A DNA stretch of 64,000 nucleotides from the NCBI GenBank assembly GCA_963764975.1, contig CAVXUF010000002.1, positions 467,809-531,808 on the forward strand, read 5' to 3'. This stretch comes from an uncultured Chloroflexia bacterium (GTDB lineage Bacteria > Chloroflexota > Limnocylindria > Limnocylindrales > CSP1-4). The notes under the pieces were generated by a model. The model was not told the origin of the DNA. It did no database searches and saw nothing but the letters and a program-made list of their open reading frames with translations. Shown here in pieces: positions 19,444 to 59,289 of this stretch. The position numbers were made by a program, and so were the translations under genes. The first letter of the stretch is position 1, and each line of letters starts with the position of its first letter.

Positions 19444-19570
19444 GCAGGCTCCGCTGGGGCGAGTGCCACCGATTATGCGTCGCGCCCCACGGTGGTGACT
19501 CGTCCGGTCTGCCTCGCCGGCTCCGCGGCTCGAGATTGCCGCACTTTGGTCGGGCTGCCATGCTCCCGCG

Positions 19571-36608: not shown

Positions 36609-36898
36609 GCGCGATCCGAGTACGGCAGCGAATGGACCCGATGGGTTGGTTTGCCTGTTCCTCGCGGGTAGGCGTCGTCGGCCGGCCGAACAGTAAGACT
36701 CTTACAGTGTCGTTGCGCTACACCATCTCGAGGAGCCACCTTGAGCCAGGGCGGCGTGGTCGCGTCTCTCGCATCGGCGCAGATCCGCGCCACTTGAAGC
36801 GAACGCCTAAGGCCACTTGCTGCCGTACTGGGCGCGATCCCATGCGGGCGTCAGGCCGAACAGGACACCAACGGACTGGCGCGCGGAGGCTGCGAGCT

Positions 36899-39308: not shown

Positions 39309-39551
39309 ATGGGCAAGCGAGTCAAATGCGTTCTCCTGGCCACCTACACGAACGACAGCGGCGACCGGATGGAATGGGTACTGCCCGAAGTGTCGACGCC
39401 CGAAGTCGAGGTCATCGGGGCGTTCCTTCGCCACGCCTATCCAGGAGGTGGAGCGCTCGTGTCCGTCGTTCCCATCGAAGCGCTGAGCGACTTCACGGGT
39501 GGTTTCGATGGCGAGTTCGAGGCATTCCTAGCCCGCGCCTGGACGCGATAG
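39309..39551 (+). CDS. small hypothetical protein; its 3-prime end lies in direct repeat A
   Basis: 80 aa. The C-terminal coding part (...VVPIEALSDFTGGFDGEFEAF) recurs in frame at 58.83 kb. Confidence 0.35.
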   Translation: MGKRVKCVLLATYTNDSGDRMEWVLPEVSTPEVEVIGAFLRHAYPGGGALVSVVPIEALSDFTGGFDGEFEAFLARAWTR

Positions 39552-39594
39552 CGGGCCGCGATGCGCGCGATAGGCGGCAGTCAGGACATCGGTC
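39463..39594. repeat. direct repeat copy A (about 50-bp block + 21-bp block), homologous to 58828..58913
   Basis: The block ccgtcgt..atcga.gcgctgagcgacttcacgg(g)tggtttcgatggc and the block gcggca.tcaggacatcggtc each differ from copy B at a few positions only. Confidence 0.7.
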
Positions 39595-39710
39595 GATTTG
39601 TTGCCCTGAGGAATGGCCGCACTTCGATCGCTTCGACTGAGGCTTCTGGGCGATACTGAATGACTCGGTGGACGTCATAGGTCGACGCGCCGTCAAGTCG
39701 TCGTGCGCAG

Positions 39711-42700
39711 ATGCTGGCGGTCCCTTCGCATGAGGGGCCTCGATTTGGTCGCATTGGAGCGAACATGCGCGAGGGAACGAACGTGCGAGCGGCCTCCGGC
39801 TGGCCAGATCCGGGGCGAGAGGCCCTGACAATCCTCCGGGACCAGCTGGCGCCATTCGCGGAGGAGCATCTCTCGAGAGCCTACCCAGACTCGTATCGTC
39901 GAATCCTCGGGCTGGAGCGGCGTCCGGGAGCAACCATTGGGCAGGGTGGCCGCAAGGCCGTCGACGACCCCGACGAGCTCCTTGGCATCTTGTTGAACCA
40001 GCAGTACTGGTCCCGAGCTTTTGAGCCTGCGTTCGGTGGCGATACGAATGCCGCCTACCGGGTCAAGAACCTGTGCCGCGACATCCGCGAACTCCGAGCC
40101 GCGTTCGCGATGCACCAGCGCGATTTCACCCCCGCCGATGCGTGGCGGCTCGTGGATTCGACGATGAGGCTTCTCACCCTGCTTGACCTCCTCGATCAGA
40201 AGACCAAGGACTCGTTGGAGGAGATCCGACGAGAACTTCTGACGGCCAGCGAGAGCCCGGACACGGTTCGGCTGCGCCAGAAGCACCTTGCGCACGTCGC
40301 ATCGCGATTTGAATACGTCGATGTGGGGGCTATTGCGCCTTCGGTAGGTGGCGCTGTTGTACGTCTCAGGCTGGATGAAATCTACCGCTCCCCGCGGTTC
40401 GAGGCCATCAGCGTATCGATGGCACCCGTAGAGAGCGATGACACGGTTGTGGCACAGCCAGCTGGCACCCGGCCCCCGGAGACCGTTGGGCCAGCGGAAA
40501 TCCTCGGCGAGCGGCGCTTGTTGATCGTCGCCGGACCCGGCGCCGGCAAGAGCACGTTCATGCGATCCGTCGCTCGGGACCTCGCCCTTGGCCGAGACGT
40601 GCCGGGGATCGCCGCTGCACTCACGCCGATCCTGGTGGCCGCCAGTGCACTTGGAGAGGCGTTGGCCAATGGATCCGCGTCGTCGCTCGAGGACTACATC
40701 GAGACCCAACTCGCAGGCGATGCGGGACCTGCCCTGGGATCCGACATCCGCGCTGGTCGAGCGATGGTTCTGGTGGACGGTGTCGACGAGGTCGGTGCCC
40801 AGGGGGCTCAAATCAGAGTGGCCCAAGCTCTCGAACACTTCGGGGCGGCGCACCCCAGCGTCCGCATGGTTGTGTCCGCACGACCCATGGGCTACCGCGA
40901 AGTACGCCTTGGCGCAGACTTCACCGCATATCGGCTTTCGCCGCTCGGCTCGGGCGAGATCGAGGCGTTCATCGGCGGCTGGTTCGGGGCCGCCTTCCCG
41001 CAAGACGAGGCGGAGGCCAATCGGCGACGCAGCCTCGGCGTGAACGCGCTGATTTCCTCCTCAGCCGAGTTGCGCGACCTCGCGGGCACCCCCCTGTTGC
41101 TCACCGTGATCTGCCTGCTCGCGATGCGGGGAGGCACACTTCCTGAGCGCCGGGTGGAGCTCTTCAGGGTGGCAACGAACACCCTCCTGCATCAATGGCC
41201 AAGGACCCACGGATTCAATCTCGACGATTACGAGTTGCGGCTGCTCATGGGCAGGGTCGCCGCGAGAATTCTCGAGCGCCGTGAGCGCCTACTCCGGGCA
41301 TCGGAGCTCGAGGGGTTGCTCGAGAACGCGCTTGAGGACTTGCGCGGACTCGCCCGGCCCCAGGCCAGACAAGCGGCAGCAAGCATGTTGCGAATGATCG
41401 AGCAGCAGACCGGCTTCCTTGTCGAGCAAGGCGTCGACGCGGGTGAGCCGGTCTACGGATTCATCCATCGGAACTTCGCCGAATACCTGGCGGCGATTGA
41501 CCTGTTCGAGCGGCACGCCGCAGGCACGATCACCCTCAGCGACATCGTCTTCGATCCCCGCTATGGGGAGGCGATCCCCCTCTTCTTCCTACACGTGAGC
41601 GAGACCGGACTGGAGCTGTCATCCAGGCTCGTCGATGAAGTGCTGTCGCTTGACTCCCCGTTTCGAATCTATGCGTGCTTGGGCGAGCGTCTTGTCGTAG
41701 ACCTGTTGACCCAGGGCGTGCGCGTCAAGCCGATGGTGCGTGAGCGTGCTGTTCTGCTGGCAATTGAGGCGGCGATCTCTGTGAAGTCGTCGTATGTCGC
41801 GGACATGCTGATGACGGGACTCCACCGGCTGGCCACCGAAGACCGGCTCGGCCCCCAAGGCGACCTCCTGATGGAACGTATCGACGCGGCCCCATTCTCG
41901 CGAGGGAGACGGGCGCGGGTCGTATGGAAACTGCGGCCCGAGCCGTACACGGGCCCCGACGTGAGGTGGCTTCTCGACGAGGCGCGCGCCATCGCGGATG
42001 TCGAACCTGGCGAGGCGAACATGCTCCTGAAGCTCGCCTCAGCGGCCACCGGGTCGGAGGCTGCGGAGGTCGACGCTGCCCTGGATCGCCCCGCGGGAAC
42101 GCGGGCGGTGCTTCTCGCTTTTGCAACCGGCCCCGCCGCCACCGACCGGATTCCCATTACCGAGTCCCAGGCAGTTGGACTCGCCGACGCGGGGTTACTG
42201 CGATTATCGGCCGGGGACCTCGTCGCTCATCACGGCGTCCCACCTGGTTTTGATGCGGGGCCGTTCCTTCTGGACGTCGCGGATGTCGACCTCATTGACG
42301 TCGAAGGACTCTTGACACTCAACCAAGAGGGGCTCCCAATGTGGGTAGTCCTCCTGATCTCCGGACTGCGGTCATGGAGTCCGGCCGAGTCAGATGAAGC
42401 CGCAGCACGCTTCGTTCAGCTTCCTGAGCCGGCCGAAGACGCAACCGGATTCGCGCCCACCGTGCTGCTCGCGATCGTGGCCGCCGGGCGCATCGCCCAA
42501 CTGAGCGAGGCGGCGGAGATGCCGGACTGGCTACGGCGGGCGATCGATGCGGAGAATGCGGACGACGGCCTCGACATCGCGCTGGCTTTCCACTTTGTCG
42601 CCACGGCCGTGTCCACGGTCACGTCATGGGGCACTCCCCTGTTGGTGGGACTCCTAACGCATCGCGAGGGCTCCATCCGGAGGGGCGTGTGCCGGCGCAT

Positions 42701-43511
42701 CGGAGAGCGACAAGCCGAGGAAGCGTGGGCTAGCGGTCAGCATTTCCAGCTCGACGAGGATGTCCTGGTCGCGCTGGAGCTGCTCCGGGACGACCCAGAT
42801 CCCGAGGTCAGGAGCGAGGCTTGGCGCACCGCAGCCGTTCTTGGCACGATCCCGACCAAACTCGTGTCCGCGCTCGGCACGGGAGGTGCGACCGTGGAGC
42901 CCAAGGAACCAGTCACACTGCCCGTCTTCGCGGCCCTTGTCTGGTCGCTCATGGCGTCGGCCGCGCATTCGAAGCACGTAGCCGATGGGCACCTACTCGC
43001 GGGGCAGCTCGGTCAGCTGCTCGACTGGCGCGTAAAACCAGTTCCGACGCCCGACGACCTGTGGCGCTTCTGGCCTGGGGCGATCGAACACCATCGACTG
43101 CCGACTGAGGTCCGGGATTCCGCATGGTCCCGAACCGACAGTGCTGATCCCGCGACCAGAGCTTGGGCAGCGGCGTCGTGGGCAACCTGCCTTCGCGGCT
43201 CCGACGGAAGAAACCAAGTCGAGATCCTTCTCAGTGACACTGACCCGTCTGTGAGCCTGGCGGGACTCGTAGGCATGCAGTCGCCCGACATCGGTGATGC
43301 CCTATGGATCCCAGCAGCTGTTGAGCCTCTGCTTCGGGCCGACATCGACATATGGGAGTTCATCATCGGGCCCGCCGGGATTGACATGTCTCCGGAGTAC
43401 CACCGTGAGCTCGGCCGAACGCTTTTGCGCGCATTGGACACTGCGGCAACGACCGAGAACAACTTCGATCTGCTTTGGTCATTTGCGATCGAGTCCTACT
43501 CCAGCCCTTAG
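39711..43511 (+). CDS. STAND-class (NACHT-like) NTPase with N-terminal helical domain and C-terminal HEAT/ARM-like repeats
   Basis: Walker A LLIVAGPGAGKSTF and Walker B MVLVDGVDEV, followed by about 800 aa of helical repeats including DPDPEVRSEAWRTAAVLG (HEAT-like). The N-terminal about 270 aa are uncharacterised (R-x4-H at RLRQKH). An alternative start at ATG 39765 is possible. Confidence 0.65.
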   Translation: MLAVPSHEGPRFGRIGANMREGTNVRAASGWPDPGREALTILRDQLAPFAEEHLSRAYPDSYRRILGLERRPGATIGQGGRKAVDDPDELLGILLNQQYWSRAFEPAFGGDTNAAYRVKNLCRDIRELRAAFAMHQRDFTPADAWRLVDSTMRLLTLLDLLDQKTKDSLEEIRRELLTASESPDTVRLRQKHLAHVASRFEYVDVGAIAPSVGGAVVRLRLDEIYRSPRFEAISVSMAPVESDDTVVAQPAGTRPPETVGPAEILGERRLLIVAGPGAGKSTFMRSVARDLALGRDVPGIAAALTPILVAASALGEALANGSASSLEDYIETQLAGDAGPALGSDIRAGRAMVLVDGVDEVGAQGAQIRVAQALEHFGAAHPSVRMVVSARPMGYREVRLGADFTAYRLSPLGSGEIEAFIGGWFGAAFPQDEAEANRRRSLGVNALISSSAELRDLAGTPLLLTVICLLAMRGGTLPERRVELFRVATNTLLHQWPRTHGFNLDDYELRLLMGRVAARILERRERLLRASELEGLLENALEDLRGLARPQARQAAASMLRMIEQQTGFLVEQGVDAGEPVYGFIHRNFAEYLAAIDLFERHAAGTITLSDIVFDPRYGEAIPLFFLHVSETGLELSSRLVDEVLSLDSPFRIYACLGERLVVDLLTQGVRVKPMVRERAVLLAIEAAISVKSSYVADMLMTGLHRLATEDRLGPQGDLLMERIDAAPFSRGRRARVVWKLRPEPYTGPDVRWLLDEARAIADVEPGEANMLLKLASAATGSEAAEVDAALDRPAGTRAVLLAFATGPAATDRIPITESQAVGLADAGLLRLSAGDLVAHHGVPPGFDAGPFLLDVADVDLIDVEGLLTLNQEGLPMWVVLLISGLRSWSPAESDEAAARFVQLPEPAEDATGFAPTVLLAIVAAGRIAQLSEAAEMPDWLRRAIDAENADDGLDIALAFHFVATAVSTVTSWGTPLLVGLLTHREGSIRRGVCRRIGERQAEEAWASGQHFQLDEDVLVALELLRDDPDPEVRSEAWRTAAVLGTIPTKLVSALGTGGATVEPKEPVTLPVFAALVWSLMASAAHSKHVADGHLLAGQLGQLLDWRVKPVPTPDDLWRFWPGAIEHHRLPTEVRDSAWSRTDSADPATRAWAAASWATCLRGSDGRNQVEILLSDTDPSVSLAGLVGMQSPDIGDALWIPAAVEPLLRADIDIWEFIIGPAGIDMSPEYHRELGRTLLRALDTAATTENNFDLLWSFAIESYSSP

Positions 43512-43600
43512 GTCCTGCGCGGCCCGAGGATGGTCGTTCCCGGATTGGGAGTCGCATCGTGGCGGCGCCCATCTCGGCGGGCGCGCGGAGTTGCCGGGGA

Positions 43601-44908
43601 CTAGCCGAGAATCTCGCCGTCGGCCCTGCCGAAGCTCACCCGCGTCCCGGCCGCCAGCTGGAGGGCCTTACCCGGCTCGACCTCCCGTTGGACCCCGGCA
43701 GTTGAACTCGTCCATGCCTGCTGGGTGAGGTTCCGTAGGCCCCACCTAGAGGGGTCCGACGGGTGGCGGGTGACCTCCGCGACCGGGTTGCGGTAGTCGA
43801 GCCCCGCGGTCTCGTCCAAGTGGTGCGCGTAGAGCTGTGCATCGTGGTTGAGGACGACCAGAGACTTCCCGACCCGGATCCGCATGGGGAGCACTAGCGG
43901 CCGCGCACACTTCCAGCATGACCCCGGCGAGCCGTCCTGCCGGCTCGGGTCGTAGAAGTTCTCGGCGCCGCACGAGCAATAGACGATCGAATCACGGAGT
44001 CGCGCCATCGCCGCGCGCCAAACCGACTCGCGGACCCTGCCGTGGGCGAAGTCCCTCAGCCCGACGGTGAAGGACTGCGTGAACAGGTCGCGCAGGAATG
44101 CCGGGTAGATCGGCCAGAAGGCGATCGCGTTGTCCTGGTACCCGGCCACCGGCTCGTTCGAGGCGTCCTGCGGGTCGAAGATGAACAGCGGGTCCGTGCC
44201 GTACAGGCGAGTCATGGCGGGGAGGTCGAAACAGTGGATGCTCGCCTCCCGGCGGCCCTCAAGCGGGTGGTGGTTGACCAGGAGCAGGAACAGCAGAACA
44301 GCGAGTGAGAATAGGTCCGTCTGGGTCGACGGCAGGGCTTCGCCGCGCACAACCTCGGGGGCCATGAAGCGCGGCGTGCCCAGGACGCCGCCCTTGGCTT
44401 GGTCCAGGCCGACATTGTCGTTGTCGCAGATGAGGACGTCGCCCGTGGCCGGGTCAAAGAAGACGTTCCCATGGGAAATGTCGCGGTAGCAGAGCCCGCG
44501 CGCATGCAGCTGGTAGAAACCGTCGGCGAGAAAGGCTCCAGCCGTGGCGAGGCTGCGGAATGATGGCGACACGCGTCGACTCAGCAGGTCGGGAATGCCC
44601 TTGTAATTGGGCGGGCGAAGGGCCATCAGGTACCCGAAACTCGGGTTCCCCGGAATGGTGGCGAGAGCCACGGGCCACAGGAAGCGCTCGGCTGGGGAGC
44701 CGGCATCAACGAGTGTCTTCAATGCGGCTCGCTGGTCAGCCGTCGCCGTCTGGGCGTAGTACCACTTTAGGGCGAACTTGGATCCACCCAGAGATACCTC
44801 ATAGACCTCCCCCTGGCCTCCGGCGCCCAAAAGGCGCTCCACGCGTCCGGCAGGTCCACCCGGAGAAGCCCGGAACTCCTCGCCCTTGCCGAGAACGCTC
44901 GAAGCCAT
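43601..44908 (-). CDS. Ser/Thr protein kinase with C-terminal FHA-like domain
   Basis: Gly-loop LGAGGQGEVYEV, VAIK-like FALKW, catalytic YRDISHGNVF and DNDNVG (DFG-like). The C-terminal ...VLNHDAQLYAHHLD...ALQLAAGTRVSFGRADGEI resembles an FHA core. The start is set at ATG 44908. Confidence 0.6.
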   Translation of the reverse strand: MASSVLGKGEEFRASPGGPAGRVERLLGAGGQGEVYEVSLGGSKFALKWYYAQTATADQRAALKTLVDAGSPAERFLWPVALATIPGNPSFGYLMALRPPNYKGIPDLLSRRVSPSFRSLATAGAFLADGFYQLHARGLCYRDISHGNVFFDPATGDVLICDNDNVGLDQAKGGVLGTPRFMAPEVVRGEALPSTQTDLFSLAVLLFLLLVNHHPLEGRREASIHCFDLPAMTRLYGTDPLFIFDPQDASNEPVAGYQDNAIAFWPIYPAFLRDLFTQSFTVGLRDFAHGRVRESVWRAAMARLRDSIVYCSCGAENFYDPSRQDGSPGSCWKCARPLVLPMRIRVGKSLVVLNHDAQLYAHHLDETAGLDYRNPVAEVTRHPSDPSRWGLRNLTQQAWTSSTAGVQREVEPGKALQLAAGTRVSFGRADGEILG

Positions 44909-44980
44909 TACATCCTCCCTCGGGCGCCTGCCACGTGCGCCGGAACGGCCAACGCGGAAGGATCTACCACGACCCAATCG

Positions 44981-45898
44981 TCACAGCGATCGAGCCTCCG
45001 CCTCCTCGGCGGATTGTCGAGTCACCGGCGGCGCGGGGGACCACAATAGTCCCAACGAAATGTCATCACCGCTTCCTGAAGCGGTGAGTTCCTCGAGCCA
45101 GCCGGGCACGCGCGAAACAACTTCGTCGAAACCGTCCTGCTGGATCAGGCTGGCGATGTCGGTTGCGAACCGAAGCATGCCTGTGTCGTCGACAAATGAG
45201 TTGACGAGTCCATCGGTTGACAGGAGGACGAGGGGCATGTGCTCGCGAAGGAGAGCCACCCGGAACAGACTCCAAGCGTCTTTCGAGCAGAGCGATGTGG
45301 TCTCGTTTGCGATGAGTCGGTCATCAGAAGGGATCGGTCTCGAGACCTTCCCGTCTGCTGAGACGCTTACAAGGTCCCCGTCGCCGACCTGCCAGGAGGC
45401 AAGAAACTCGGTTGTCGCGACTGCTGTCACAAGGGTCGTGCCATAGGCCACGTATGGATCGAGGTTTAGCGCATCAACGCTCCCTTCGCGGGTGCGCACT
45501 CCATCAAGCTCGACATCTGTGAATGGATTCGCCGCCAGATCGTCGTCTACCGCCTTTCGCCAGTCGCGGACCAACCGCCTTGGCAGGTCTTCGGTCAACC
45601 TTCCCCGGAGCATCCCTGGGCTGGCCGCCGCGATATCAATCTCGAGCAACTCGCCCGCCAGTGACATTGCGACCTGGTTGGCGAGGCGGGAGCCGTCTGC
45701 GCTACGGAATGACCGGGCGCTGCCGTGGCCGTCCGCCACGGAGAGCGCTACTGAGGAGCCATGCCCCACGCTAGGTAGCCATGCGATGGCATCCTGGTTC
45801 GGCATCCCACTCCGAATGTGAGATGCGCCCCTTACTGAAGCGCCCGATACACGCCAGCCACCACTATTCGGAGCTGCCCTCTCCGTCGGGCTGGCCAT
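44981..45898 (-). CDS. PP2C-family Ser/Thr phosphatase
   Basis: GASVRGASHIRSGMPNQDA..., VADGHGS, and the conserved Asp-rich C-terminal motifs (LSTDGL). The start is set at ATG 45898. Confidence 0.65.
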   Translation of the reverse strand: MASPTERAAPNSGGWRVSGASVRGASHIRSGMPNQDAIAWLPSVGHGSSVALSVADGHGSARSFRSADGSRLANQVAMSLAGELLEIDIAAASPGMLRGRLTEDLPRRLVRDWRKAVDDDLAANPFTDVELDGVRTREGSVDALNLDPYVAYGTTLVTAVATTEFLASWQVGDGDLVSVSADGKVSRPIPSDDRLIANETTSLCSKDAWSLFRVALLREHMPLVLLSTDGLVNSFVDDTGMLRFATDIASLIQQDGFDEVVSRVPGWLEELTASGSGDDISLGLLWSPAPPVTRQSAEEAEARSL

Positions 45899-45902
45899 CC
45901 GA

Positions 45903-46607
45903 TTACCAGACGAAGTCGACGTCTGTGGAGTCATCCGGGGCGACGGGTATTGGGACGTTGCCGCCAACTTGCGCGTCGTCTACGGCGCGGCTGGCAGGCG
46001 AGGATGCCGCCTTGAGCACGGCCGTCGAAGCCCACTTGATGTAAGTCACGAGGGCGGGCGCGTTCTTCGCCAGAAGGGGCTTCAGTTCCCCCGTGCCGAT
46101 GAACTTCGACAAGACGTCCAGATCAGCATCGCCCCCAACGGCGATCCCGATTCGAACGGCTCGCTTGCCCCAAGGCTCAGACATGAGCCGCTGGAGTCCC
46201 CCGCCGAAGTCGTCGGTCGGCTGCCCGTCGCTGATCAGCACGAGGACCGGCGGGAGAGATCTGTCGGGCATCGGTGGGGTCTGGAGTTGCTCAGCAACGA
46301 GTTCCATGGCGTGACCCATGTCCGTGACTCCCCCCGCAGTCACGTTGGTCCACTTGAAGTCCTCGATCGAAATGGGCGTTGCGACATGCCACCTCGCGCC
46401 ATCCGAGAAGGTCACGACCCGCACCAGGACCTCCGCATTGGGGTTCTCCCGGGCTGTGTCCAGCATCGCCGGGATCGCCTCGTGGATCGCGAAGTTGAGC
46501 ATGCCGATCTTCTCGCCATCCATGGAACCTGATGTGTCGAGAATCCAGATGAAGTGCAAGGGCCGAGTTGCAATCGGCCCTCCGGGCAAAGCGCTCATGA
46601 CGCGCAT
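45903..46607 (-). CDS. von Willebrand factor A (vWA) domain protein
   Basis: MIDAS motif FIWILDTSGSMDG...T...D. Confidence 0.75.
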   Translation of the reverse strand: MRVMSALPGGPIATRPLHFIWILDTSGSMDGEKIGMLNFAIHEAIPAMLDTARENPNAEVLVRVVTFSDGARWHVATPISIEDFKWTNVTAGGVTDMGHAMELVAEQLQTPPMPDRSLPPVLVLISDGQPTDDFGGGLQRLMSEPWGKRAVRIGIAVGGDADLDVLSKFIGTGELKPLLAKNAPALVTYIKWASTAVLKAASSPASRAVDDAQVGGNVPIPVAPDDSTDVDFVW

Positions 46608-46744
46608 CCTACAGCGTGCTCACCTGTGAAGTTACACGAATCTCTTATCGCGGCCGCCATTTCTCTGTCTCGGTGGAGTAATGTCGAAGCAACCGTCGGA
46701 CGCTCGTCGCCGACCGTGCGCAGTGAGGGGAAATTGGTGGCTGC
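46608..46744. promoter_or_regulatory. divergent intergenic region between the vWA operon (-) and the 46745 gene (+), lower GC
   Basis: 137-bp AT-richer spacer between divergently transcribed genes. No specific -35/-10 boxes assigned. Confidence 0.3.
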
Positions 46745-49318: not shown

Positions 49319-49394
49319 ACAGGTCGGCGACATCCGTCGAGGCCAGGCGACGTCAAAGACACCAGACGCCTCCGATGTCGCATCCTCGGGGACC

Positions 49395-49862
49395 TCAGGG
49401 CGGCAGCCCGATCTTACGGCGCACACGCGCCTCGATCGTCAGTCGTGCCTTCTGGACCTCGTCGGCCGCGTGCTGCAGGTCTGCAATCGCCGAGTTGATT
49501 TCGCCCACAACGGCATTCATCCCCGCGCCGTTCTGCCGACGGGTCCTCGATCTGGGCGACGCCGGCAGAGGCACTCCGAGGCTACCGAGGAGCGCCACGG
49601 AATCGCGCTCGATCTGGTCCAGTTCGCCGAGCAGTCTGGCGACGTCGGCGTCAGTGCGACGCTGCTTGTCCTGGCTGGCTTGCATGGCGGCCCGACTCCG
49701 GGCCTCTGTTGCGTCGCACCGTGAGACGTGCTCATTCTGTGAGGCAGCCTCGGAGCGACCCAGGTCCGCCTCAATTCGTGCCAGCTCCGTCAAGGTCCTC
49801 GCGACAGCGGCACGACCTGAGTAACCCGGGTCACCCGGACGGAGTTTCGGAGCGACCATCAA
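49395..49862 (-). CDS. hypothetical coiled-coil protein
   Basis: 155-aa helical ORF with a 4-nt overlap to the upstream small ORF. Confidence 0.3.
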   Translation of the reverse strand: MMVAPKLRPGDPGYSGRAAVARTLTELARIEADLGRSEAASQNEHVSRCDATEARSRAAMQASQDKQRRTDADVARLLGELDQIERDSVALLGSLGVPLPASPRSRTRRQNGAGMNAVVGEINSAIADLQHAADEVQKARLTIEARVRRKIGLPP

Positions 49863-50074
49863 GGGACCGAGCTGCGGATGCTCTCCAGCACGGCGTCGAG
49901 TTCCCGCATCTGATCGAGGAACGCGGACGCCGCGCGAGTGAGCGGACCCCAGTAGTCGCCTTCGAATTCACTTCGGACCCTGTCGCTCCAGACCTCACCG
50001 GTGAGAGCCCACTCAGCATTCAGCCATTGGCAGGCCTGCTCGAACTCGGCTACAAATGTCGACCCCGCCATCAC
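49859..50074 (-). CDS. WXG100-like small helical protein (W-x-D variant), paralog 3
   Basis: EVWSDRVRSEFEGDYW aligns with the central motif of the other two paralogs. Confidence 0.35.
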   Translation of the reverse strand: MMAGSTFVAEFEQACQWLNAEWALTGEVWSDRVRSEFEGDYWGPLTRAASAFLDQMRELDAVLESIRSSVP

Positions 50075-50346
50075 GGGACGCCCAGATAGGCTTTGAGCGC
50101 TGCGGCCTTGTCCTGAAGGAACGAGATGCCGTCGGCCGACCGAGCCATGTAGCGGCTGATGGCGTCATCGACCTCGCTCCACTCCTCGGAGAACTGTTGG
50201 TAGCGCGAATCCTGCCAGCCTTCGCCCAGCCGTGCGAATTCCGTGTTGCACCGCTCCATGCTCTCGGCTAGTTCCATGTTGAACACGCGGACCTCGCGGA
50301 GGAACGCCTCGAGTAGCTCGAGATCCACATCAATCCCGCCCGACAT
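50071..50346 (-). CDS. WXG100-like small helical protein (W-x-D variant), paralog 2
   Basis: 91 aa from ATG 50346 (MSGGIDVDLELLEAF...). The central motif is GEGWQDSRYQQFSEEW. Confidence 0.4.
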   Translation of the reverse strand: MSGGIDVDLELLEAFLREVRVFNMELAESMERCNTEFARLGEGWQDSRYQQFSEEWSEVDDAISRYMARSADGISFLQDKAAALKAYLGVP

Positions 50347-50456
50347 ACCGCCTCCTCTAACTGTCGTCCCGCGCCTACCGTTCCCACCACCCGACTTGGC
50401 CGGCCTTCTCCTGAAGCTGTGCGCGGGCGCCGGGACACGTTGCATGGAGCTCCTGC

Positions 50457-50807
50457 TCAAATCGACTGGACGACGTGGCGAGGCCATCGGAAGCCGCATA
50501 GGCTCGCCGCTCGAGCGACGTTGCGATATCGAGAATTCGTCTGAGCCTCGTCGCGCGCGGCAACCAGCGCGTAGCAATCCACCTCGCCCCCGCTCGCGAT
50601 TGCTGCCGCCTCGCATTGGCGGAGCTCAAGCTGACGCGCCTCGACCTCTCGCAGCCAGTAGGCGCGCCGCTCTCCCGTGAGTTGGACCACGGCTCCGACT
50701 GCCTCCCGTGCCTCTGCGACGGCACCGGCGGATCGTTCTTCGAACCGGCCGATCGAACCGGCAAGGTCTCGCGCGACTTCGCCACCCGAGATGCGTCCAT
50801 TCCACAT
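50457..50807 (-). CDS. small helical hypothetical protein
   Basis: 117 aa from ATG 50807, lying between WXG-like genes. Confidence 0.3.
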   Translation of the reverse strand: MWNGRISGGEVARDLAGSIGRFEERSAGAVAEAREAVGAVVQLTGERRAYWLREVEARQLELRQCEAAAIASGGEVDCYALVAARDEAQTNSRYRNVARAASLCGFRWPRHVVQSI

Positions 50808-50811
50808 CAGA

Positions 50812-51084
50812 CTATGCCTCGTAGTCTCGGGCCTCGGCGAGGCGCGAACGGAGGTACTCGACATAGCGCTCGGATCGCGCGAGGTAGTGCTCGATAACAG
50901 GGTACGTCTCGTCCCAGTCGCTCAAGAACCGCATCGCCTGCGGATCGCGCCAGGCCGACAGAAGCTCGGCCCACGCCCCGTTCAGGTTCGAGGCACGCGC
51001 CTGAAGATCCGTGTTGTAGGAAACGAGGGTCGAGATGAACGCACTCAGCGCGTCGGGATCCCTCAGGGTCCCCCTTGTGCTCAT
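50812..51084 (-). CDS. WXG100-like small helical protein (W-x-D variant), paralog 1
   Basis: 90 aa. Central GAWAELLSAWRDPQAMRFLSDW, a predicted helix-turn-helix hairpin. Confidence 0.4.
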   Translation of the reverse strand: MSTRGTLRDPDALSAFISTLVSYNTDLQARASNLNGAWAELLSAWRDPQAMRFLSDWDETYPVIEHYLARSERYVEYLRSRLAEARDYEA

Positions 51085-53598
51085 GTCACTTCCCTTTCTG
51101 TAGCTGCTTGACGATTGTCCACCGCGTCAGGCTGTCGTCGCCCTCTGAGCCGCGTTGCGATCCTCGCCCACGTTTCCGAGTCTGGCAGTTCATAAGGCTT
51201 GAACTTCACCGGTCGATGGGCACGGACATCGTCTTTGAAGAGTGCCCGCTCAGCCCCGAGGCGACCGGCTGCCGGGATCTGGAGATAGGCGTTCGACTCA
51301 GAATCTGGCATCGGCAGGGCGACGCGCAACCCGAAGGCCAGGGTGGCCTGCCTCTGGACAAGACGCTCGAGGTTCGTGAAGACGGCCGACCATGCGAATA
51401 TGTGAACGCCAACACCCGGCCCATCGTTCACCACGTCTAGGAATGCCGCGGCAGCTCCGGCGGCCTTGCCAAACCGATCCGTCTCTCGCAAGGCGTCGAG
51501 CCTGTCAAGGCCCGGGATGACCACGATCTTCGAGCGCCCTGCCGCGCCGGTCCTTCGGCTGGCGACAACCTCGGCCAGGTCGCCGAACAGGTCGCCGACT
51601 CCTGACATGGGCAGTGTCGCCACCTCGTGCGGCACAGTCTGGCCGAGCTCGTCGAAGATCTTGCTCCATGCGTGACCTCCCGTGCTCGCCTGCACAATGG
51701 CCAGGTCCAGCTCGTCGACGCCGCCGTCTGCGCACGCGCCGATAAGCGCCGAGCACAAGATCGCATGGGCAAGGCGCTCATCTTGCCCAGCGATCAGAAG
51801 ATTCTCCCTTGGCATCCTGGCGAGAGTCGCGGCGAGGTGTGGGCCGATCTCGATAGGCTCGCCGAGCCAGAGGCGGGCGCCATCGATTCCGTACCCAGAG
51901 TCGCTGGCAAGAGACTTCCCGAGGTCTACGTTCTCGCGAAGTCGCGCGGGGGCGCTGGAGGAGAAGACGTATGGTGCCCAGGATCGCGCGGCGCCGGCCT
52001 TTCCTAGCTGCCGAATCTGAGCGATCCGCTGTCGCCGTTCCTCCGGTTCAAGCATGGCCACCCGCAACATGACATTGCGGGTGGCATCTCCACCGGCGTC
52101 GTTGTACACGGCCTCGCCCGACTTCTCGAGCGACGCAGCAGCCGCGTTGTTGTCGCCCAGGATGAGGCGAGCGTCGGCATCAGCGATGGACAGGGCGATA
52201 CGGAGGCTCACGGAGATTCATGGCCGAGCGGTTGCTGGTGAAACTGCTCGCTGGTGTCTGGCTGCTCAGAAGCACGTGGATACCGAAGCCCCGCCCGCGC
52301 TTGATGAGGTCGGCGAGCTGCGTGGTCGCCGCGGCCGTCAGGGTCGGATCGCCCCCGTCGCCGAACAGGATCTGATACTCGTCGAGGACCAGGAGCACGC
52401 GCGCCATCGGCTGGCCCGTCGAAGCCCGGTAGGCCTTGATCGTCTGTGTCTGAGCCTGCCGGAAGAGCACCCCGCGACGCGCCAGCTCCTGCCCGATCGC
52501 GTTGAGAACGCTCAGACCCTGCTCGGGATCGCTTTCCAGGCCGATGGCGCGGGCGTGCGGGAGCCCTCCGCGCGCATAGTCCTGAAACTCGACTCCTTCC
52601 TTGAAGTCGAGCAGGTAGACCTCCAATTCATCTGGGGAGTAGGCGGCCGCCAACTGGACCAGTAGTACATGAAGGAGGTTGGTCTTGCCCGAACCCGGGA
52701 GACCACCGATGAGTCCGTGGTGCACGAGGCCCGAGCCGATGACGAATTCGTGGGGCTGACCTCTGGCGTCCGTGCCGATGACGGCCCGAAGCCCATCGCT
52801 TGAGTCCGATTTCCACAACTGGTCTGGCGGGATCGCCACCCTCGCAAACGGGACCGTCTCGTCGGCCTGGGCGTCAGCTCCGTGCCCGGCGACGTCAAGC
52901 AGACGATCCAGCACGGCATCGCTTGGCGACTCATCCAGGCGCACGCGATATCGGCCCAAGTCCGGCTCGTTCCAGGAAGCCATCCCTCCACTGTCAACCC
53001 GCAGCGTCCAACATCTTGCCGATGCCGCCGCGAGGTCGAGAGACCGAGGCAGCTGACCACCGGTCTGGTGCACGGTCGCGAGGACGATCGTTCCAGTGCG
53101 AGGCCCATTCTCTATAAGTCGGAACAGCGACGCCGCGGACGTCTCAGAGAAGCCCGCCGGGTAACCGACGACCGCCACAAACTCGTACCTAACGCGCTGC
53201 ACGCCGGGTTTCCGGTTGTGGTCCTCGATCGATGCGCTGTTCAGCAGCTGGTTTTGCGTCACTGCCTCAACGTGGGACAGAAGGCGGCTGAGCTCGGACT
53301 CCAGCTCACGTGCGTCCGAGTAGACCTTGTCGCGACGAACTTGGGTGGGCAGGCGTAGGTAGGTCTTCAAATTCTGGCCAAGGCCCGCGGGGTCAATCAG
53401 GGTCAGCCGGTAACTCCCCGGCGGCACAGTCCCCACGATCCGAGCGAGGACGCTCTTGAGCGACTGGGCGGCGAAATCGGAAGCATTGGCGTCGGCAAGC
53501 CAAAGGATGGGCCGGCTCGCAAACAGCGGCAGGAGCGCCGGTGCAGGCGACCCGACCCGGGGCACATCTATGGCGCCGACGCGGATCGAAGCCGGCAA
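51081..53598 (-). pseudogene. FtsK/SpoIIIE-family (EccCb/EssC-like) ATPase, frameshifted around 52180-52211 and apparently 5-prime truncated
   Basis: ORF 52180..53598 has Walker A GLIGGLPGSGKT and Walker B VLLVLDEYQ. ORF 51081..52211 continues the same domain in another frame (SLRIALSIADADARLILG, equivalent to the FtsK RIAF...DSRTIL region), then a degenerate third domain. The upstream frame is open to about 53874 but has no start other than TTG 53598. Confidence 0.55.
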
Positions 53599-54114
53599 GC
53601 GACCGGGCTGGGAGCCGCCGGACAGCGGCCACTGCGACGACCAGGGTTCTGCGATTGCCCCGAGGAACGCGATGGCCTCCCTTATCGGTCTGACGACGTC
53701 GCGATCGATCAGACCCTGGGCTCGCTGACGCTCCTGATCAACCTCCTGCTTGGCCTGCTGCTCGCTCGCCGCGATCGCTCGTCTTGCCGCATCGCGGCTG
53801 CGGGTCGAATTCCTGCTGAACGTCCCGAGCTGCCGCTTGCCGCTCTGTGGCCGCCTCAGCTCTGGCGAGGTCGATCAGCGTTTGGAGGTGAAGGTATCGA
53901 TCGAGTAGAGCATCGATAGCCCTGCGTTCAGTGCCCATTGCCTCGCGGTGCCCCTCCGCTCGATCGAGGCGTGTCGCACGAGGACAGGATCATCGTCTGT
54001 CCGCCGGTCAGCGCGCGTGCAGCCATCCTACTAAATCGGGGCCGAGTCAATTGCTCTGACCGGCTGGTCCGCGCATCACGCCTGCCCGTCATGCGGCGCC
54101 TGAACCGACCCACG

Positions 54115-55653
54115 TCAGGGCATGCCGTTGTTCGTCCACCACGTCGTGAGGGCCTTGATCGAGTAGCCCTTCTTGGCGTTCAGCACGCCGTACACCAGTC
54201 TCCGCTCATCGGTCCACCGGATGGCTGCGTTCCCATCGAGCTTCTTCAGGTAGCAGATGGCGCGCCCGCCCGCCCAGGCCGTTTCCCCAGTACCACCGGC
54301 AATACAGGAACCCGAGTCCTGTTCGACGCCAGACTGCGCAGCGATTGTCTTTGATCGGAACGCATACCACGCAGATAGGGCTTCGGTGCTTGTGAACTGG
54401 AAGAAGGCGATGTCCTCCAGCTTTGAGGTCGGGTTCGCGCAATCGATCACGGCGACGTCCCCAACAGGGTCGTTGACGCTCTCGTCCTTCGCATGATCGA
54501 CCGTGGGGTCATTGGGGCTACACGCTGCGCGCCATGCCGGTGCCGCCAGCTCAAGGAGAGCCTGCTGTTCGGGCGACATTAGTGGCCCGTCGCCGGACTC
54601 GAGATAGAGCGTGTGGTTCCACCAAAGATCGACAACCGACGCAAGTGATGTGGCCGTCGAGCCGGACGCGGTACCGACGACGCTCGACCGCGAGTCGAGC
54701 CACGACACGCGTGCCGGCTGCCCTGCTGCGCACGAGACGCGCCCGTAGGAATACTCGACTTCGCCGGGCTGCCCGTTCCAGCAGCCAGCCGTGCCGACGG
54801 CCACGCCGGCCGCGGACTGCAGGGTTTCGTAGCGGGCCTGTGCCTTTGTGGCGTCCGGGAAAAGCTCAATGACGAAGGCGACGTGAGACTTCGAGCATCT
54901 GACCGCGACCACAGCACTTTCGGCTACGTCCGTCGCATCGCCAGGCGCTACCGGGACACAATCGGCGGGTCCCATTCGGGCTGACAGGGCGCTCATCAAA
55001 GTCGCGACAAGAGCTGGCGCTCGGGATGAAGAGGGGGTTGCGACGGCCACCTCGCCGGGCGCGCCTGAGGAGGGTGCCGCCGCTGCGCTGCCACCACCCG
55101 AGGACGTAGGCGGAGATCCGTTTGCCGAACTCGGAGCAGCCTGCGGGCGGATCGTGACAGCAGCCAAGATCGCGACTATCGCGATCGATGCGCCGACCGG
55201 GACGACGAGCCGTCGTGACGGCCGGCGTGGTTCATCCGTTGTAGCAGTCGTGGAGTTTGCGCCGGCGACACTCGCGACACGCGCAGCTGAGACATGGGAC
55301 GGCTCCGCGGTCAGCGAGGAGGAGGGCAGCGTACGGGCGTTGAATGACGTGTCGATCCCAAGCGCCGCGGCCCATGCCCCGACGGCCCAGCTGGCGGGAC
55401 CTGGAGCTATGCCCTCAGCATCTTCGAGCCTGCCCGACAGGGCTGGCACAAGGACGTGGATTTCGGCTCCGGAAGCCTCGAGTAAAGCGCGAGGAATGCC
55501 CTCTCGAGCTGCCGCTACCAGGACCGCAACTTCCTTGCGGTGCCCGGTGGCGAGGTCGCGGAGGAGAGCCTCGAGTCGACGAGGATCGTCTGACACCTCT
55601 GTCCCGAAACGCTCCACTAGGATTGCTAGGACATCTGTGGCCGCATCGTTCAC
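54115..55653 (-). CDS. membrane protein: conserved N-terminal helical module + TM helix + duplicated Cys-containing extracellular domain
   Basis: N-terminal MNDAATDVLAILVERFGTEVSDDPRRLEALLRDL... is paralogous to the 46745, 56036 and 57409 genes. TM helix VPVGASIAIVAILAAVTI. Confidence 0.5.
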   Translation of the reverse strand: MNDAATDVLAILVERFGTEVSDDPRRLEALLRDLATGHRKEVAVLVAAAREGIPRALLEASGAEIHVLVPALSGRLEDAEGIAPGPASWAVGAWAAALGIDTSFNARTLPSSSLTAEPSHVSAARVASVAGANSTTATTDEPRRPSRRLVVPVGASIAIVAILAAVTIRPQAAPSSANGSPPTSSGGGSAAAAPSSGAPGEVAVATPSSSRAPALVATLMSALSARMGPADCVPVAPGDATDVAESAVVAVRCSKSHVAFVIELFPDATKAQARYETLQSAAGVAVGTAGCWNGQPGEVEYSYGRVSCAAGQPARVSWLDSRSSVVGTASGSTATSLASVVDLWWNHTLYLESGDGPLMSPEQQALLELAAPAWRAACSPNDPTVDHAKDESVNDPVGDVAVIDCANPTSKLEDIAFFQFTSTEALSAWYAFRSKTIAAQSGVEQDSGSCIAGGTGETAWAGGRAICYLKKLDGNAAIRWTDERRLVYGVLNAKKGYSIKALTTWWTNNGMP

Positions 55654-56035
55654 CCATCCCTCCGGTCAACCGGGCACCCGGCGGGTGCGACGACCGGGGG
55701 CTCCTGCCGCACGGCGATCTGGCAACCCTTCAGGATTGTCCGAGATTATGCCACCGCGGAGTGTCATCGTGACATGGCCTCGTGGCCCGACCGCTAGCCA
55801 CACCACCTGACGTCTTCGGACTGTGACTTGCCGCAGCCGTTGGTTCCATGCGCTCCAATTCAGCTTGGTCCGCGCCGAAGGTAGGAAGGTTCCACCCGCG
55901 TCGACAGCCGCCAACTTGCCCGACATCATCATGCGCAGGGCTGACGCGAAGTCATTCGGCCGGACCTCCAGCAGCAGCCCCGCAGTGATGACTCCATGGG
56001 GGCGGCAGCAGCTTGTGCTCCCTTGGGAATCCGAC

Positions 56036-56848
56036 TCAGGCGGCGATGATCTGCAACGGTACCGCTGTCACTGTGCCCTCTTGGATCAGCCAACCCGACA
56101 ATCCCGGCACAGGCGCCAATGTCGCGAAAATGCGAAGGGCATCGGGGTAATGGTGGAGACTGATGTCCATGGAGCTGGGTCGGGACCAGGTTCCTATCGG
56201 ATCAGTTGAGTAGATGGCCCAGAACACCTCATCCCGATCGTCTATTTCGATCGACGCGGCTAGCAGAATTTCGGGATCAATTTCAAAACGGCTCGGGCTC
56301 ATGGCCCTATTCCTTGACGGGTAGATGCGCGTCGCGATTCCACCCGTCTGGTATGGAGCATTGCCGATGACCAAGCCACACGCGGCGTTGGGGAACGCCT
56401 GTCTTCCCGCATCGAGAATTGCTTGGGCAAGGTGTCCGGGAAGGTAAGCCGCCCCCACGGCAATGGACCTTGAGGCTGTTTGGTCCGAGTGGCCGCCCTT
56501 CGAGTCTGCTGGCGCGGGTGTCAGGCTCGCGGGCCCCCCAACGAAATCTAGGCCGAGGGCAAAGGCCCATGTGTCGATCGCCCAGCTGGCCGGTTGCTCG
56601 GCAACTCCTGCCTCATCCCGCAGACGTCGCGTGAGCCGCGCGATGAGAAGCCGATCTCCCCGGCCACCCGCCATCGTGAATTCCGCCACCACGCCTTGCC
56701 GAACTGCGGTGACGAGAACCGCTATCTCGAGCCGGTCCCTGCCAGACAAATCCCGCAGAATCGCCTCGACGAGGCGCGGGTTATTGACGAAGTCCGTCCC
56801 GCGGTCGACAACGATCCTTCGCAGGACTTCCCGGACCTCGTCGTTCAT
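56036..56848 (-). CDS. conserved N-terminal helical module fused to a JAB/MPN (Mec+/JAMM-like) domain with substituted metal ligands
   Basis: ACGLVIGN...RIYPSRNRAMSPSRFEIDPE...VFWAIYSTDP....PSSMD aligns with the JAMM core (..YHSHP...S-x2-D), with H replaced by S and H replaced by D. The start is ATG 56848 (MNDEVREVL). Confidence 0.5.
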   Translation of the reverse strand: MNDEVREVLRRIVVDRGTDFVNNPRLVEAILRDLSGRDRLEIAVLVTAVRQGVVAEFTMAGGRGDRLLIARLTRRLRDEAGVAEQPASWAIDTWAFALGLDFVGGPASLTPAPADSKGGHSDQTASRSIAVGAAYLPGHLAQAILDAGRQAFPNAACGLVIGNAPYQTGGIATRIYPSRNRAMSPSRFEIDPEILLAASIEIDDRDEVFWAIYSTDPIGTWSRPSSMDISLHHYPDALRIFATLAPVPGLSGWLIQEGTVTAVPLQIIAA

Positions 56849-57083
56849 CTTCGCGATGCCCGAGAGCGAGTCAGTTCGTGCGCCGTCGATGCGAGTTGCC
56901 GAAGTTTGGGGTCGGATCGAGGCATCGGGAGGGCGGCCAACGAGGGGCACCAGGCTGCCAGGCTGTCGACTGGGCAAGATGACGACGAAGATGCCGGTTG
57001 CGGCGTGCTCGGCCTAAAGCCACTCGTTTCGAAACGGGCCACGTCTCGCCCGAGCAAGCGTCGTCGAGGGAAGCACCGCACCG

Positions 57084-57377
57084 TCACTTCTGCTTGATCT
57101 CGCGCTTGATCGGAACGCAATACTGGTCGACGCGAACGGTGTTGCGACGGAAGCCCACAACCTGGAAGCTGATGCGATTCTCGCGAAGTAGCCCTGATTC
57201 ACTCGTATCGCAATCGGCAACCCAGCCATCACGCCTGCGATCGATTAGTTCCTTCTCCACCTCAAGGTGGATGTCACTTGCGGCCAGAAACAGCGCCGTG
57301 GCCGCATCCCGACCCCCGTAGTCGGTCTGCAATCGCTTGAGGATGGTGCCGTATTCCCAGAAGTTCTCCCGTTCCAT
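57084..57377 (-). CDS. small hypothetical protein in a lower-GC patch
   Basis: 97 aa (MERENFWEYGTILKRLQ...). Local GC is noticeably below its surroundings. It sits immediately downstream of 57409..58485. Confidence 0.4.
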   Translation of the reverse strand: MERENFWEYGTILKRLQTDYGGRDAATALFLAASDIHLEVEKELIDRRRDGWVADCDTSESGLLRENRISFQVVGFRRNTVRVDQYCVPIKREIKQK

Positions 57378-57408
57378 CGGCGAACACTCCTACGCCATGT
57401 CTCACAAC

Positions 57409-58485
57409 CTACTTCTTCTTGAAGTCAACCATGCTCGCAAGCGAGCGCCCATACTTTTCGAGCCGCTCGAACCGAGATGCCCCAAGGCGACCGATCAGCA
57501 ACTGGCGCTCTTGATCCGCAATCTGATATCCGCGTCGAACAAGGACGAGCTTGGTCATCAGTGAATCCAGAAGCCGGTCCTCGAGCTTGGCTTCGAGCAT
57601 GGGCGATCCGAGGACTCTCTGGACCTTCGCTGGGCTCATCACGTCGCAGAAGCCGAGCAGCTGTCCCAAGCCGCCCATGCAGTAGGCCGCCAGGTCACCG
57701 GTGATGAGCTCGCCATCGCGGTAACGCGCCCACCGCGAGAGTCTGAAGTACTCGGCGACCATCTCGATGTCGGCGTAGGCAGAAAGCAGCTCGCGGTCTT
57801 CGGCCGTGAGCATCTCCCACGACGATGCGTTGGAGTAAAGGTTGCTGAACAGTCTCTTTGCGATTGCCTCGGCCTCGTCGGTGACCTCGGCGCGCGCGGC
57901 GGTCCGGAGTGTCTCGAACTCGGCCTCGAGGCCAGGCGGATAGGAGGCCGACGGCTTAGCGATCGGCGGTTGAGCGCCCGCAGTCGCGGGTGGCTGGCGC
58001 ATTCCGGCCACGCTTTCCGCGGCTCCAGCAGCCACGCCGCACCGCACGCAGAACCGAGCTCTGGCCGGGAGTGGTGCCCCGCACTGTGAACAGAAGGCTG
58101 CGTCGCCCGATGGACCGCCGGCCGAGGCCGGAGCAGGGGGCGCAGAGGCATCGGCTATCGCGCCGGGACCCGCCGCAGAAACGGGGATGCCCAACGCCTG
58201 ACCCCACGAACGTACCGCCCAGACTGCGGCCTCATTCGTAAGGGCGTAATGCTCCTCGAGGCGACTCGCGAGCGCCGCAACGAAGACGCCGCCGGCATTG
58301 GCCGAGCGCGCCGCGAGGTCGGTCGGGATGCCGGCCCGGGCCGCTGTCACTAGGACGGAGATTTCGCGGCGATGCTCGCTGGCTAGGTCCCGCAGCAGAC
58401 CCTCCAGGCGGGGCGGGTCGTCACCGATCTCACGTCCGTAGCGGGAGACGATGGTGCCGAGGACACCTACGATGGCGGCGTTCAT
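57409..58485 (-). CDS. conserved N-terminal helical module + zinc-ribbon (CSQCG...CVRCG) + uncharacterised C-terminal domain
   Basis: N-terminal MNAAIVGVLGTIVSRYGREIGDDPPRLEGLLRDL... is paralogous. It has two CxxC pairs. Confidence 0.5.
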   Translation of the reverse strand: MNAAIVGVLGTIVSRYGREIGDDPPRLEGLLRDLASEHRREISVLVTAARAGIPTDLAARSANAGGVFVAALASRLEEHYALTNEAAVWAVRSWGQALGIPVSAAGPGAIADASAPPAPASAGGPSGDAAFCSQCGAPLPARARFCVRCGVAAGAAESVAGMRQPPATAGAQPPIAKPSASYPPGLEAEFETLRTAARAEVTDEAEAIAKRLFSNLYSNASSWEMLTAEDRELLSAYADIEMVAEYFRLSRWARYRDGELITGDLAAYCMGGLGQLLGFCDVMSPAKVQRVLGSPMLEAKLEDRLLDSLMTKLVLVRRGYQIADQERQLLIGRLGASRFERLEKYGRSLASMVDFKKK

Positions 58486-58827
58486 CGTTTCAGCCTAGCC
58501 CCCTGAGCAGCCGGATCTGCGGGTGCCGATGATTTCGAGATGCCCCGCGCAACTGATGCCCCGCCGCAACTCTGGGCCCGAGCGGCCCGCACGCAGATGG
58601 CCCGCCCAGGTCCGACTGAGGATGTCATCAGGCCGGAGATCGATCACGCGTACCATGCTAGTCCCGGCTCCTCCTGGGAGGGCTCGCCTAGCGTTTCCGG
58701 GCGATTCTCTCGGACGCTGGAGGCCGGTGCAACAGTCGCGCCGGTAGGGCAGCTCCAGCTCAGCGACCTGAAGAGGAGGATCCAGAGACGGTCCTCGACT
58801 GCGATCCAGGGGGCGGAGTGCGCGTAG

Positions 58828-58913
58828 CCGTCGTACACATCGAGGCGCTGAGCGACTTCACGGTGGTTTCGATGGCACCGCGCTCACGCCGTGCGGCAAT
58901 CAGGACATCGGTC
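58828..58913. repeat. direct repeat copy B, homologous to 39463..39594
   Basis: See copy A. The inter-block spacer is 16 bp here versus 61 bp in A. Confidence 0.7.
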
Positions 58914-59267: not shown

Positions 59268-59289
59268 CGGATCTGTCTCCAAGGCTTCG

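Follow-up and report, generated by a model that had tools for sequence, protein, structure and literature searches.

A decayed partial copy of a rare small gene at a hot spot in a defence island of an uncultured Chloroflexia bacterium

Here, we analyzed a 64-kb stretch of DNA from an uncultured Chloroflexia bacterium (order Limnocylindrales; contig CAVXUF010000002.1, positions 467,809 to 531,808; hereafter, the window), in which two imperfect direct repeats, A and B, bracket 19.4 kb of DNA. The repeated sequence includes the 3′ part of a small, intact gene (39309-39551, plus strand) that encodes a protein of 80 amino acids (aa) without a known family. To its left lies, in divergent orientation, the gene for a UvrD/superfamily 1-like helicase (36899-39112, minus strand; Pfam UvrD-helicase and UvrD_C_2), and, to the right of copy B, the nearest gene (59410-63177, plus strand) encodes a 1255-aa protein without a known domain. 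The two copies, which an earlier note on this DNA had placed at 39463-39594 and 58828-58913, are present there as claimed. Our analysis identified copy B as the remnant of a second small gene and the DNA just 3′ of the small gene as a hot spot, and we favor, with moderate confidence, the reading that A and B are the scar of cassette stacking at this hot spot by illegitimate or one-sided recombination.

The direct repeat and its decayed second copy

Gapped local alignment showed that A and B are in direct orientation and that their homology is wider than the ~50 + 21 bp originally described; the repeat of that length is real, but the homology extends further, over 39399-39597 in copy A and 58767-58916 in copy B. 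It falls into two blocks on the plus strand. Block 1 of copy A (39399-39512) covers codons ~31-68 of the small gene and aligns to block 1 of copy B (58767-58876), a 5′-truncated, frameshifted pseudogene fragment, with identity in 90 of 116 columns (78%; E=4e-18 in a gapped comparison of 2 kb against 2 kb). Block 2 is non-coding: in copy A (39556-39597) it begins 5 bp past the stop codon, in copy B (58878-58916) it directly follows block 1, and 33 of 42 positions are identical. The best ungapped stretch (39439-39498 versus 58804-58863; 60 nt, 85% identity) holds an exact run of 19 bp, GCGCTGAGCGACTTCACGG, at 39480 and 58845. Aligning the copies with their flanks, which had been proposed as the way to define a core, thus does yield an exact run, but one embedded in homology of only ~70-80% identity with indels, over ~80 bp upstream and ~50 bp downstream, and the similarity is weakest at the left edge. 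A/B looks, in short, like a degenerate paralogy of roughly 150-200 bp with indels rather than a sharp identical core.

The pair stands out clearly from chance. GCGCTGAGCGACTTCACGG has 2 matches in the window at up to 3 mismatches, against 0.10 expected, and GGCARTCAGGACATCGGTC, the 19-bp block 3′ of the stop that differs by one mismatch between A and B, occurs twice, against 0.03 expected. Two copies only, both strands counted, are present, and in a self-BLAST of the whole window A/B is the sole long-range repeat, barring paralogous N-terminal domains and one intragenic tandem duplication; these counts cover the 64 kb of the source genome represented by the window.

Copy B can be aligned, codon for codon, to the small gene as well as to small-gene orthologues found in other samples. 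Codons 1-30 are absent, several indels interrupt the 5′ part, and the reading frame is that of copy A through ...VVHIEALSDFT, after which a 1-bp deletion (GGG to GG) shifts it, so that the common frame noted earlier holds up to ...SDFT and not beyond. The shorter spacer in copy B, also noted earlier, corresponds to the loss of 43 bp and, with them, of the final 12 codons and the stop of the small gene; past this gap, copy B continues with ~40 bp matching the DNA 3′ of the stop in copy A. Truncated and disrupted, yet still aligned as coding sequence, copy B is thus a relic of a second copy of the small gene, namely, a pseudogene fragment of the small gene together with ~45 bp downstream, and the alignment bears out the description of the repeat as the 3′ part of a gene plus a partial copy. 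Within the ungapped blocks, 5 of the 9 substitutions fall at third codon positions, and the best-conserved run coincides with the most conserved residues of the family (IEAxSDF), which is suggestive of, or at least compatible with, earlier coding constraint on copy B. A tblastn search with all island proteins detected no pseudogene fragment in the window other than copy B.

Several further derivations of the repeat were tried and rejected. Duplication of a cassette comprising the small gene and a large NTPase gene fails because the 1266-aa protein encoded after A and the 1295-aa protein encoded after B are not related to each other. Nor can the repeat be read as the end of a converging minus-strand gene: the open reading frames (ORFs) at 39493-39933 and 58884-59522, both on the minus strand, have 8 residues in common, those of the 19-bp block. 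Weak tblastn hints linking the repeat to 36632-37000 and 33145-33660 did not hold, and the 95-aa ORF upstream of copy B (58540-58827) does not correspond to the gene, likewise of 95 aa, that lies ahead of the small gene in the related loci L002 and L004.

Given the codon-by-codon alignment of copy B, a functional non-coding element common to both sites (a regulatory site, an RNA, or a member of a dispersed repeat family), as opposed to descent of a gene fragment, is scarcely credible. The 19-bp block 3′ of the stop, which is conserved in both copies, would suit such an element, but no Rfam family was found in the window, neither copy contains a promoter or terminator consensus, and, besides the mere two copies in the window, the small-gene family is extremely rare in public data (see below).

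The divergence of the copies is more informative. Copy B is 78% identical to copy A versus 71-74% to other members of the family, and orthologues of the small gene from other samples are 72-78% identical to copy A. Thus, B differs from A about as much as do orthologues from other samples, which suggests a separate allele and not a fresh duplication. This bears directly on the alternative that the small gene, or a segment including it, was duplicated in situ, unrelated to any gain of cargo, with the 19.4 kb accruing piecemeal between the copies and one paralogue being truncated later. In favor of such a duplication, the ~40 bp downstream that A and B have in common occurs in no other family member (in none of the relatives does block 2 follow the small gene), the interval combines separate systems in a patchwork, and the island contains other recent duplications, one of 906 bp and near-perfect (47495-49306) and one of 28 bp (24546-24601). 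The A/B divergence (22%), however, equals that of the cross-sample orthologues and lies far above that of the other duplications in the window, and neither the helicase gene nor the leader nor any other DNA flanking copy A is duplicated near copy B. We therefore consider in situ duplication rather improbable.

A hot spot 3′ of a rare small gene

Only six homologues of the small protein were found among 5.8 billion protein clusters, and 185,579 species genomes yielded a single further locus, on a short contig of a Chloroflexota metagenome-assembled genome. The family has 33 invariant residues, including the C-terminal EFEAFLAxAWxR, and the protein had no match in Pfam, PHROGs, or NCBIfam, nor in plasmid and phage collections. 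AlphaFold2 predicts an alpha/beta fold (predicted local distance difference test score, 80), for which a search against the PDB returned nothing significant (best E=0.15). The model bears a weak, non-significant likeness to the p56 uracil-DNA-glycosylase (UDG) inhibitors of phages (Foldseek probability 0.9, E about 0.5), and in the related loci L004 and L005 the small gene is followed, 1.4 kb downstream, by a gene of the UDG family (L004, 11454-12059; L005, 2134-2739); the combination of this weak likeness and a UDG neighbor is possibly a coincidence.

The small gene was recovered in five independent contexts (L002, L003, L004/L005, L017, and L018). In all five, homology to the window ends at the small-gene stop or within ~20 bp of it, and four different contents follow. 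The closest relative, L017 (78% protein identity for the small gene), is homologous to the window from position 38863, inside the helicase gene, to the stop at 39551, at 77.7% identity, and is unrelated beyond that point, where this 1.9-kb contig has a minus-strand gene for 72 aa and, after it, another ORF, both unannotated. Homology to L002, a 45-kb contig of which 20 kb was analyzed, likewise ends at the stop, and a gene for a tyrosine integrase (Phage_integrase; 10597-11637) lies 354 bp further downstream. In L004/L005, the small gene is followed by DUF429 and UDG genes and then by a transposition-like module (rve, AAA_22, and a 517-aa protein), whereas L003 retains only the first 50 codons of the same DUF429 gene before other DNA. 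Finally, homology to L018 ends 8 bp past the stop, and its 1.1-kb contig stops before any downstream gene. Thus, a conserved gene is repeatedly followed by differing DNA, and the position just 3′ of its stop is a recurrent junction between conserved and variable sequence that behaves as a hot spot. Helicase gene and small gene together form a conserved left flank, or anchor pair, in the window and in L017, and the small gene is the very rare anchor of a newly recognized hot spot. The small gene itself resides within mobile-element-like DNA, with integrase genes, HTH_17 genes, and transposon-like modules nearby. An initial tblastx comparison gave uninformative noise in this GC-rich DNA, and a 13-bp direct repeat in L002, GAGGATCGACGCC (10258 and 12706), around the integrase gene and a gene for a 325-aa protein proved to be at chance level.

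These junctions at or just past the stop, and the integrase gene of L002, raise the possibility that A/B is the attL/attR scar of an old site-specific integration by an element whose attP imitated the small-gene 3′ part, with the integrase lost since or supplied in trans and the island now immobile; copy A would then be the reconstituted gene end and copy B the displaced original one. That a gene 3′ part and a partial copy of it lie in direct orientation, and that a 19-bp exact run plus a second 19-bp motif (one mismatch) just past the stop are present, accords with this explanation, and there is good documentation of integration into gene 3′ ends giving rise to tandem islands with direct repeats at their borders, as in the ssrA islands of Dehalococcoides (PMC3146451). 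However, long stretches of degenerate homology flank the run on either side, whereas the simple B-O-P′/P-O-B′ geometry predicts that homology starts at the core. Moreover, no second partial copy of the small gene was found within ±10 kb in L002-L005, the 10 kb past the gene in L002-L004 included.

Further evidence comes from analogous scars. L009, a contig that carries an 80% identical homologue of the 1255-aa gene, contains three fragments in direct orientation, all partial copies from the 3′ part of a PALP-family gene (6253-6972, 9371-9870, and 13759-14289), which start at residues 178, 251, and 195, respectively. The first and second fragments share 85-87% identity and have open frames, and the third has decayed and contains stop codons; the second and third were independently confirmed in the separate assemblies L010 and L011. 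Each fragment begins 6-15 bp past the stop of the preceding gene, and the fragments separate, like spacers, single defence genes: a VapC-like gene, an AAA_16 gene, and a 1250-aa gene, the last being the homologue just mentioned; the latter two genes are bracketed by the fragments. The junctions show no motif in common, and the differing start points of the fragments argue against one fixed crossover site. The absence of a common core among these three starts also counts against the att explanation of A/B. Another such structure is found in two of the small-gene loci, where a 351-bp direct repeat of 85% identity (12117-12467 and 13232-13582 in L004; 2797-3147 and 3912-4262 in L005) surrounds an M41-peptidase gene, its copies overlapping small HTH_17-like ORFs. 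Partial copies of flanking genes, arranged as direct repeats, are thus common scars in these mosaic islands, with the same type of scar present at other junctions in related DNA (L009/L010/L011 and L004/L005).

Cargo of the bracket and the surrounding island

The gene content reported earlier for the bracketed 19.4 kb is correct. The first cargo gene (39711-43511, plus strand; Pfam) encodes a STAND NTPase with the architecture HEPN(Swt1-like)-NACHT-HEAT; the gene call of the source begins 18 codons downstream of 39711. Its nearest homologues, 38-42% identical, are stand-alone genes in unrelated defence islands that also carry genes for BrxL, TIR, SLATT, GmrSD, and SIR2 proteins. Next comes a three-gene operon for a Ser/Thr kinase, a PP2C phosphatase, and a vWA protein (43601-46607, minus strand; Pfam Pkinase, PP2C_2, and VWA_2), for which PADLOC matched the kinase alone (PD-T4-6 and mad6 kinase models), leaving the vWA and PP2C proteins unmatched; the domain composition of the operon fits that of the ‘TerY-P triad’.

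The remainder is an FtsK/WXG-like cluster (46745-58485, both strands). It includes two WXG100-like ORFs (50071-50616 and 50812-51084) and an FtsK/SpoIIIE-like ATPase gene (52180-53598), all on the minus strand, a protein with a JAB-like C terminus, a zinc-ribbon protein, and, in total, four proteins with a common N-terminal domain of ~105 aa, whose genes start at 46745 on the plus strand and at 55653, 56848, and 58485 on the minus strand. The four instances of this domain (46745-47060, plus; 55339-55653, 56534-56848, and 58171-58485, minus) are 34-51% identical, with the consensus MNDxxxxVLxxIVxRxGxE...DPxRxEGLLRDLA...EIAVLV, and have no match in Pfam, NCBIfam, or PADLOC. They are fused to different C-terminal parts, namely, CarboxypepD_reg repeats, an unknown region, a JAB-like domain, and a zinc ribbon; the domain appears to be an adaptor or secretion-targeting module common to the four. 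The first of the four genes (46745-49318, plus strand) encodes a repeat protein and includes the 906-bp tandem duplication (47495-48400 and 48401-49306), about 98-100% identical with 581 bp exact, which represents either a very recent event or an assembly artefact. A metagenome scan with the zinc-ribbon protein gave weak partial matches only, so that relatives of the right-hand genes of the bracket were not recovered.

Since the homologues of the HEPN-NACHT gene stand alone elsewhere, and the vWA/PP2C/kinase and FtsK/WXG clusters each form an operon of their own, the bracket is a composite of at least three independent conflict systems and not one coherent element. No integrase, serine recombinase, or transposase was detected with Pfam, PADLOC, PHROGs, or NCBIfam among the ORFs between A and B (39552-58766), in agreement with the earlier statement that no integrase lies between the copies. 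Three proteins of the bracket, of 512, 376, and 149 aa, have no match in any library, and, formally, one of them could be a novel recombinase. Both the missing recombinase and the mosaic of independently distributed systems speak against an integrated element. Thus, target-gene-derived direct repeats are present, no element-encoded recombinase was recognized, and, with the degenerate homology and the variable starts in L009, the ‘classic footprint’ of site-specific integration that had been proposed is unsupported; we regard the att explanation as unlikely. The second proposal made at the time, recombination between duplicated cassettes, fits the data better.

The gene to the right of copy B is a cassette in its own right. 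Its true start is at 59410, with the GTG start at 59290 in the ORF list being ~40 codons too early, because the homologues are 1250-1254 aa long and cover 96% of the long ORF. Homology at the DNA level (90% in L007, 80% in L009) spans only 59403/59412 to 63178/63156, and, in L007/L008 and L009-L011, this gene alone is in common with the window, in neighborhoods that differ. Given that homology ends at the gene's own borders, the 1255-aa gene is a single-gene cassette. Together with the HEPN-NACHT gene and the separate vWA/PP2C/kinase and FtsK/WXG operons, it shows that the cargo is distributed independently. The protein has no match in Pfam, NCBIfam, or PADLOC; about 50 homologues exist, some with a fused N-terminal XRE-type helix-turn-helix domain, in varied contexts beside REase-ARP, PIN-toxin, and STAND genes, which makes it a candidate for an uncharacterized defence gene.

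The bracket is not set apart from its surroundings. The GC content is about 70% over 1-20 kb and 62-69% over the rest of the window, and the composition of the bracket is that of the surrounding island, so that it is part of a larger low-GC island of at least 44 kb that extends off the window. No tRNA or tmRNA gene was found in the window, the island boundary included; a PALP-family gene (18424-19665, minus strand) lies at the island edge, ~20000. The island also carries an AAA ATPase and an HTH_17 protein and, by library matches, a possible Tn7/Tn5053-like transposition module (27662-33193, minus strand) consisting of a 501-aa TniQ-domain protein, a 383-aa protein without matches, and a 977-aa protein with a weak Mu-transposase C-terminal match. 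Upstream of this module, 33145-36236 (minus strand) holds small ORFs and an AAA ATPase gene, and no transposon-end-like or clustered end repeats were found around it, across 19.5-39.7 kb. The 28-bp duplication at 24546-24601 is perfect and in tandem, inside an ORF (24064-24642) with sub-threshold Pfam matches to HNH_5 and TRASH.

Proposed stacking of hot-spot alleles

Cassette stacking, the origin we favor, would have joined two ‘hot-spot alleles’ in tandem downstream of the small gene. The left allele would have consisted of the small gene, ~45 bp, and the genes from HEPN-NACHT to the zinc-ribbon gene; the right one, of the small gene, the same ~45 bp, a further ~490 bp, and the 1255-aa gene. 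The join would lie inside the second copy of the small gene, at about codon 31, and would have been made by illegitimate or one-ended homologous recombination. Having no function, the truncated copy would later have gained the frameshift, the indels, and the 43-bp deletion, and the 19.4 kb between the copies would represent the cargo of the left allele rather than a discrete excisable element.

Several points weigh against this scenario. In the collections searched, no relative has both flanks, joins the small gene directly to the 1255-aa gene, or presents an unoccupied or singly occupied site between the two, and we therefore infer the order of events, as we do the mechanism of recombination. 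The integrase gene that adjoins the small gene in L002 implies that, in the family, site-specific recombinases are active at this position or close to it, and the exact run GCGCTGAGCGACTTCACGG together with the shared motif GGCARTCAGGACATCGGTC could be read as att cores. With 9 substitutions, the codon-position bias of the A/B differences is not statistically significant. The analogue in L009 involves a different flanking gene, so that it shows only how frequent such scars are in a contig that carries an 80% homologue of the neighboring gene. Furthermore, with 64 kb surveyed, extra copies of A/B may be present elsewhere in the genome.

Stacking in its favored form leaves the gene fragments as passive scars. 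Alternatively, fragments of flanking genes could be active substrates of a hitherto unrecognized, integrase-free stacking process, as loose functional analogues of integron attC sites. We consider this highly improbable but keep it in view because, in both the window and L009, single defence cassettes, the same 1250-aa gene included, lie between partial copies of flanking genes, and because the L009 fragments start so close (6-15 bp) to the preceding stop. The 80-aa protein, or the 1250-aa protein adjacent to scars in two genomes, might be a participant in stacking.

As in islands and integrative mobilizable elements inserted at gene 3′ ends, such as the Dehalococcoides islands and PAISt at the 3′ end of bacA in Streptomyces (PMC4057263), the cargo has an intact gene on one side and, on the other, a partial copy of that gene's 3′ end in direct orientation, the DNA downstream of the anchor gene is hypervariable between strains, and the composition of the cargo deviates from that of the core genome, here, 64-65% versus about 70% GC. 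Unlike those islands, which have near-identical repeats of 8-20 bp at one fixed position and an integration module beside attL, the locus has a degenerate gene fragment of ~150-200 bp and no recombinase, and its analogues in L009 start variably. The resemblance to insertion of the Campbell type, or to homology-facilitated illegitimate insertion, lies in the one intact and one truncated direct copy that flank the insert and in the dispensability of an element-encoded recombinase; in contrast to such events, an identity of 78% is too low for a recent RecA-dependent crossover, and either later decay or an originally diverged donor is required.

Defence-island hot spots have conserved flanking genes, with cassettes exchanged by recombination in the flanks. 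The locus conforms to this pattern in its conserved left flank (window and L017), a different cargo in each relative, stand-alone conflict systems, and breakpoints at gene borders, and departs from it in that the anchor is a tiny, rare gene in mobile-element-like DNA instead of a core housekeeping gene and that two alleles are apparently stacked rather than replaced. Tn7-like elements, too, are carriers of defence cargo; their ends are inverted repeats with multiple transposase sites, accompanied by 5-bp target duplications. A TniQ gene and a weak Mu-transposase-like match are present in the same low-GC island, but A/B is a single direct pair of a gene fragment, with the search for end-like repeats having come out negative.

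These findings have practical consequences for how the island is read. The 19.4 kb is not expected to excise as a discrete element; rather, its cargo accrued at a hot spot 3′ of a very rare gene, and the repeat is a dated junction within a defence island, useful for delimiting cassettes. The scar itself is of an ordinary kind, and the phenomenon is unsurprising; what is newly recognized is the gene that anchors the hot spot, and the finding helps to identify the helicase and small-gene pair as a hot-spot anchor. More generally, A/B and the L009 array indicate that defence islands can grow by stacking alternative hot-spot alleles, with partial copies of flanking genes left behind as scars.

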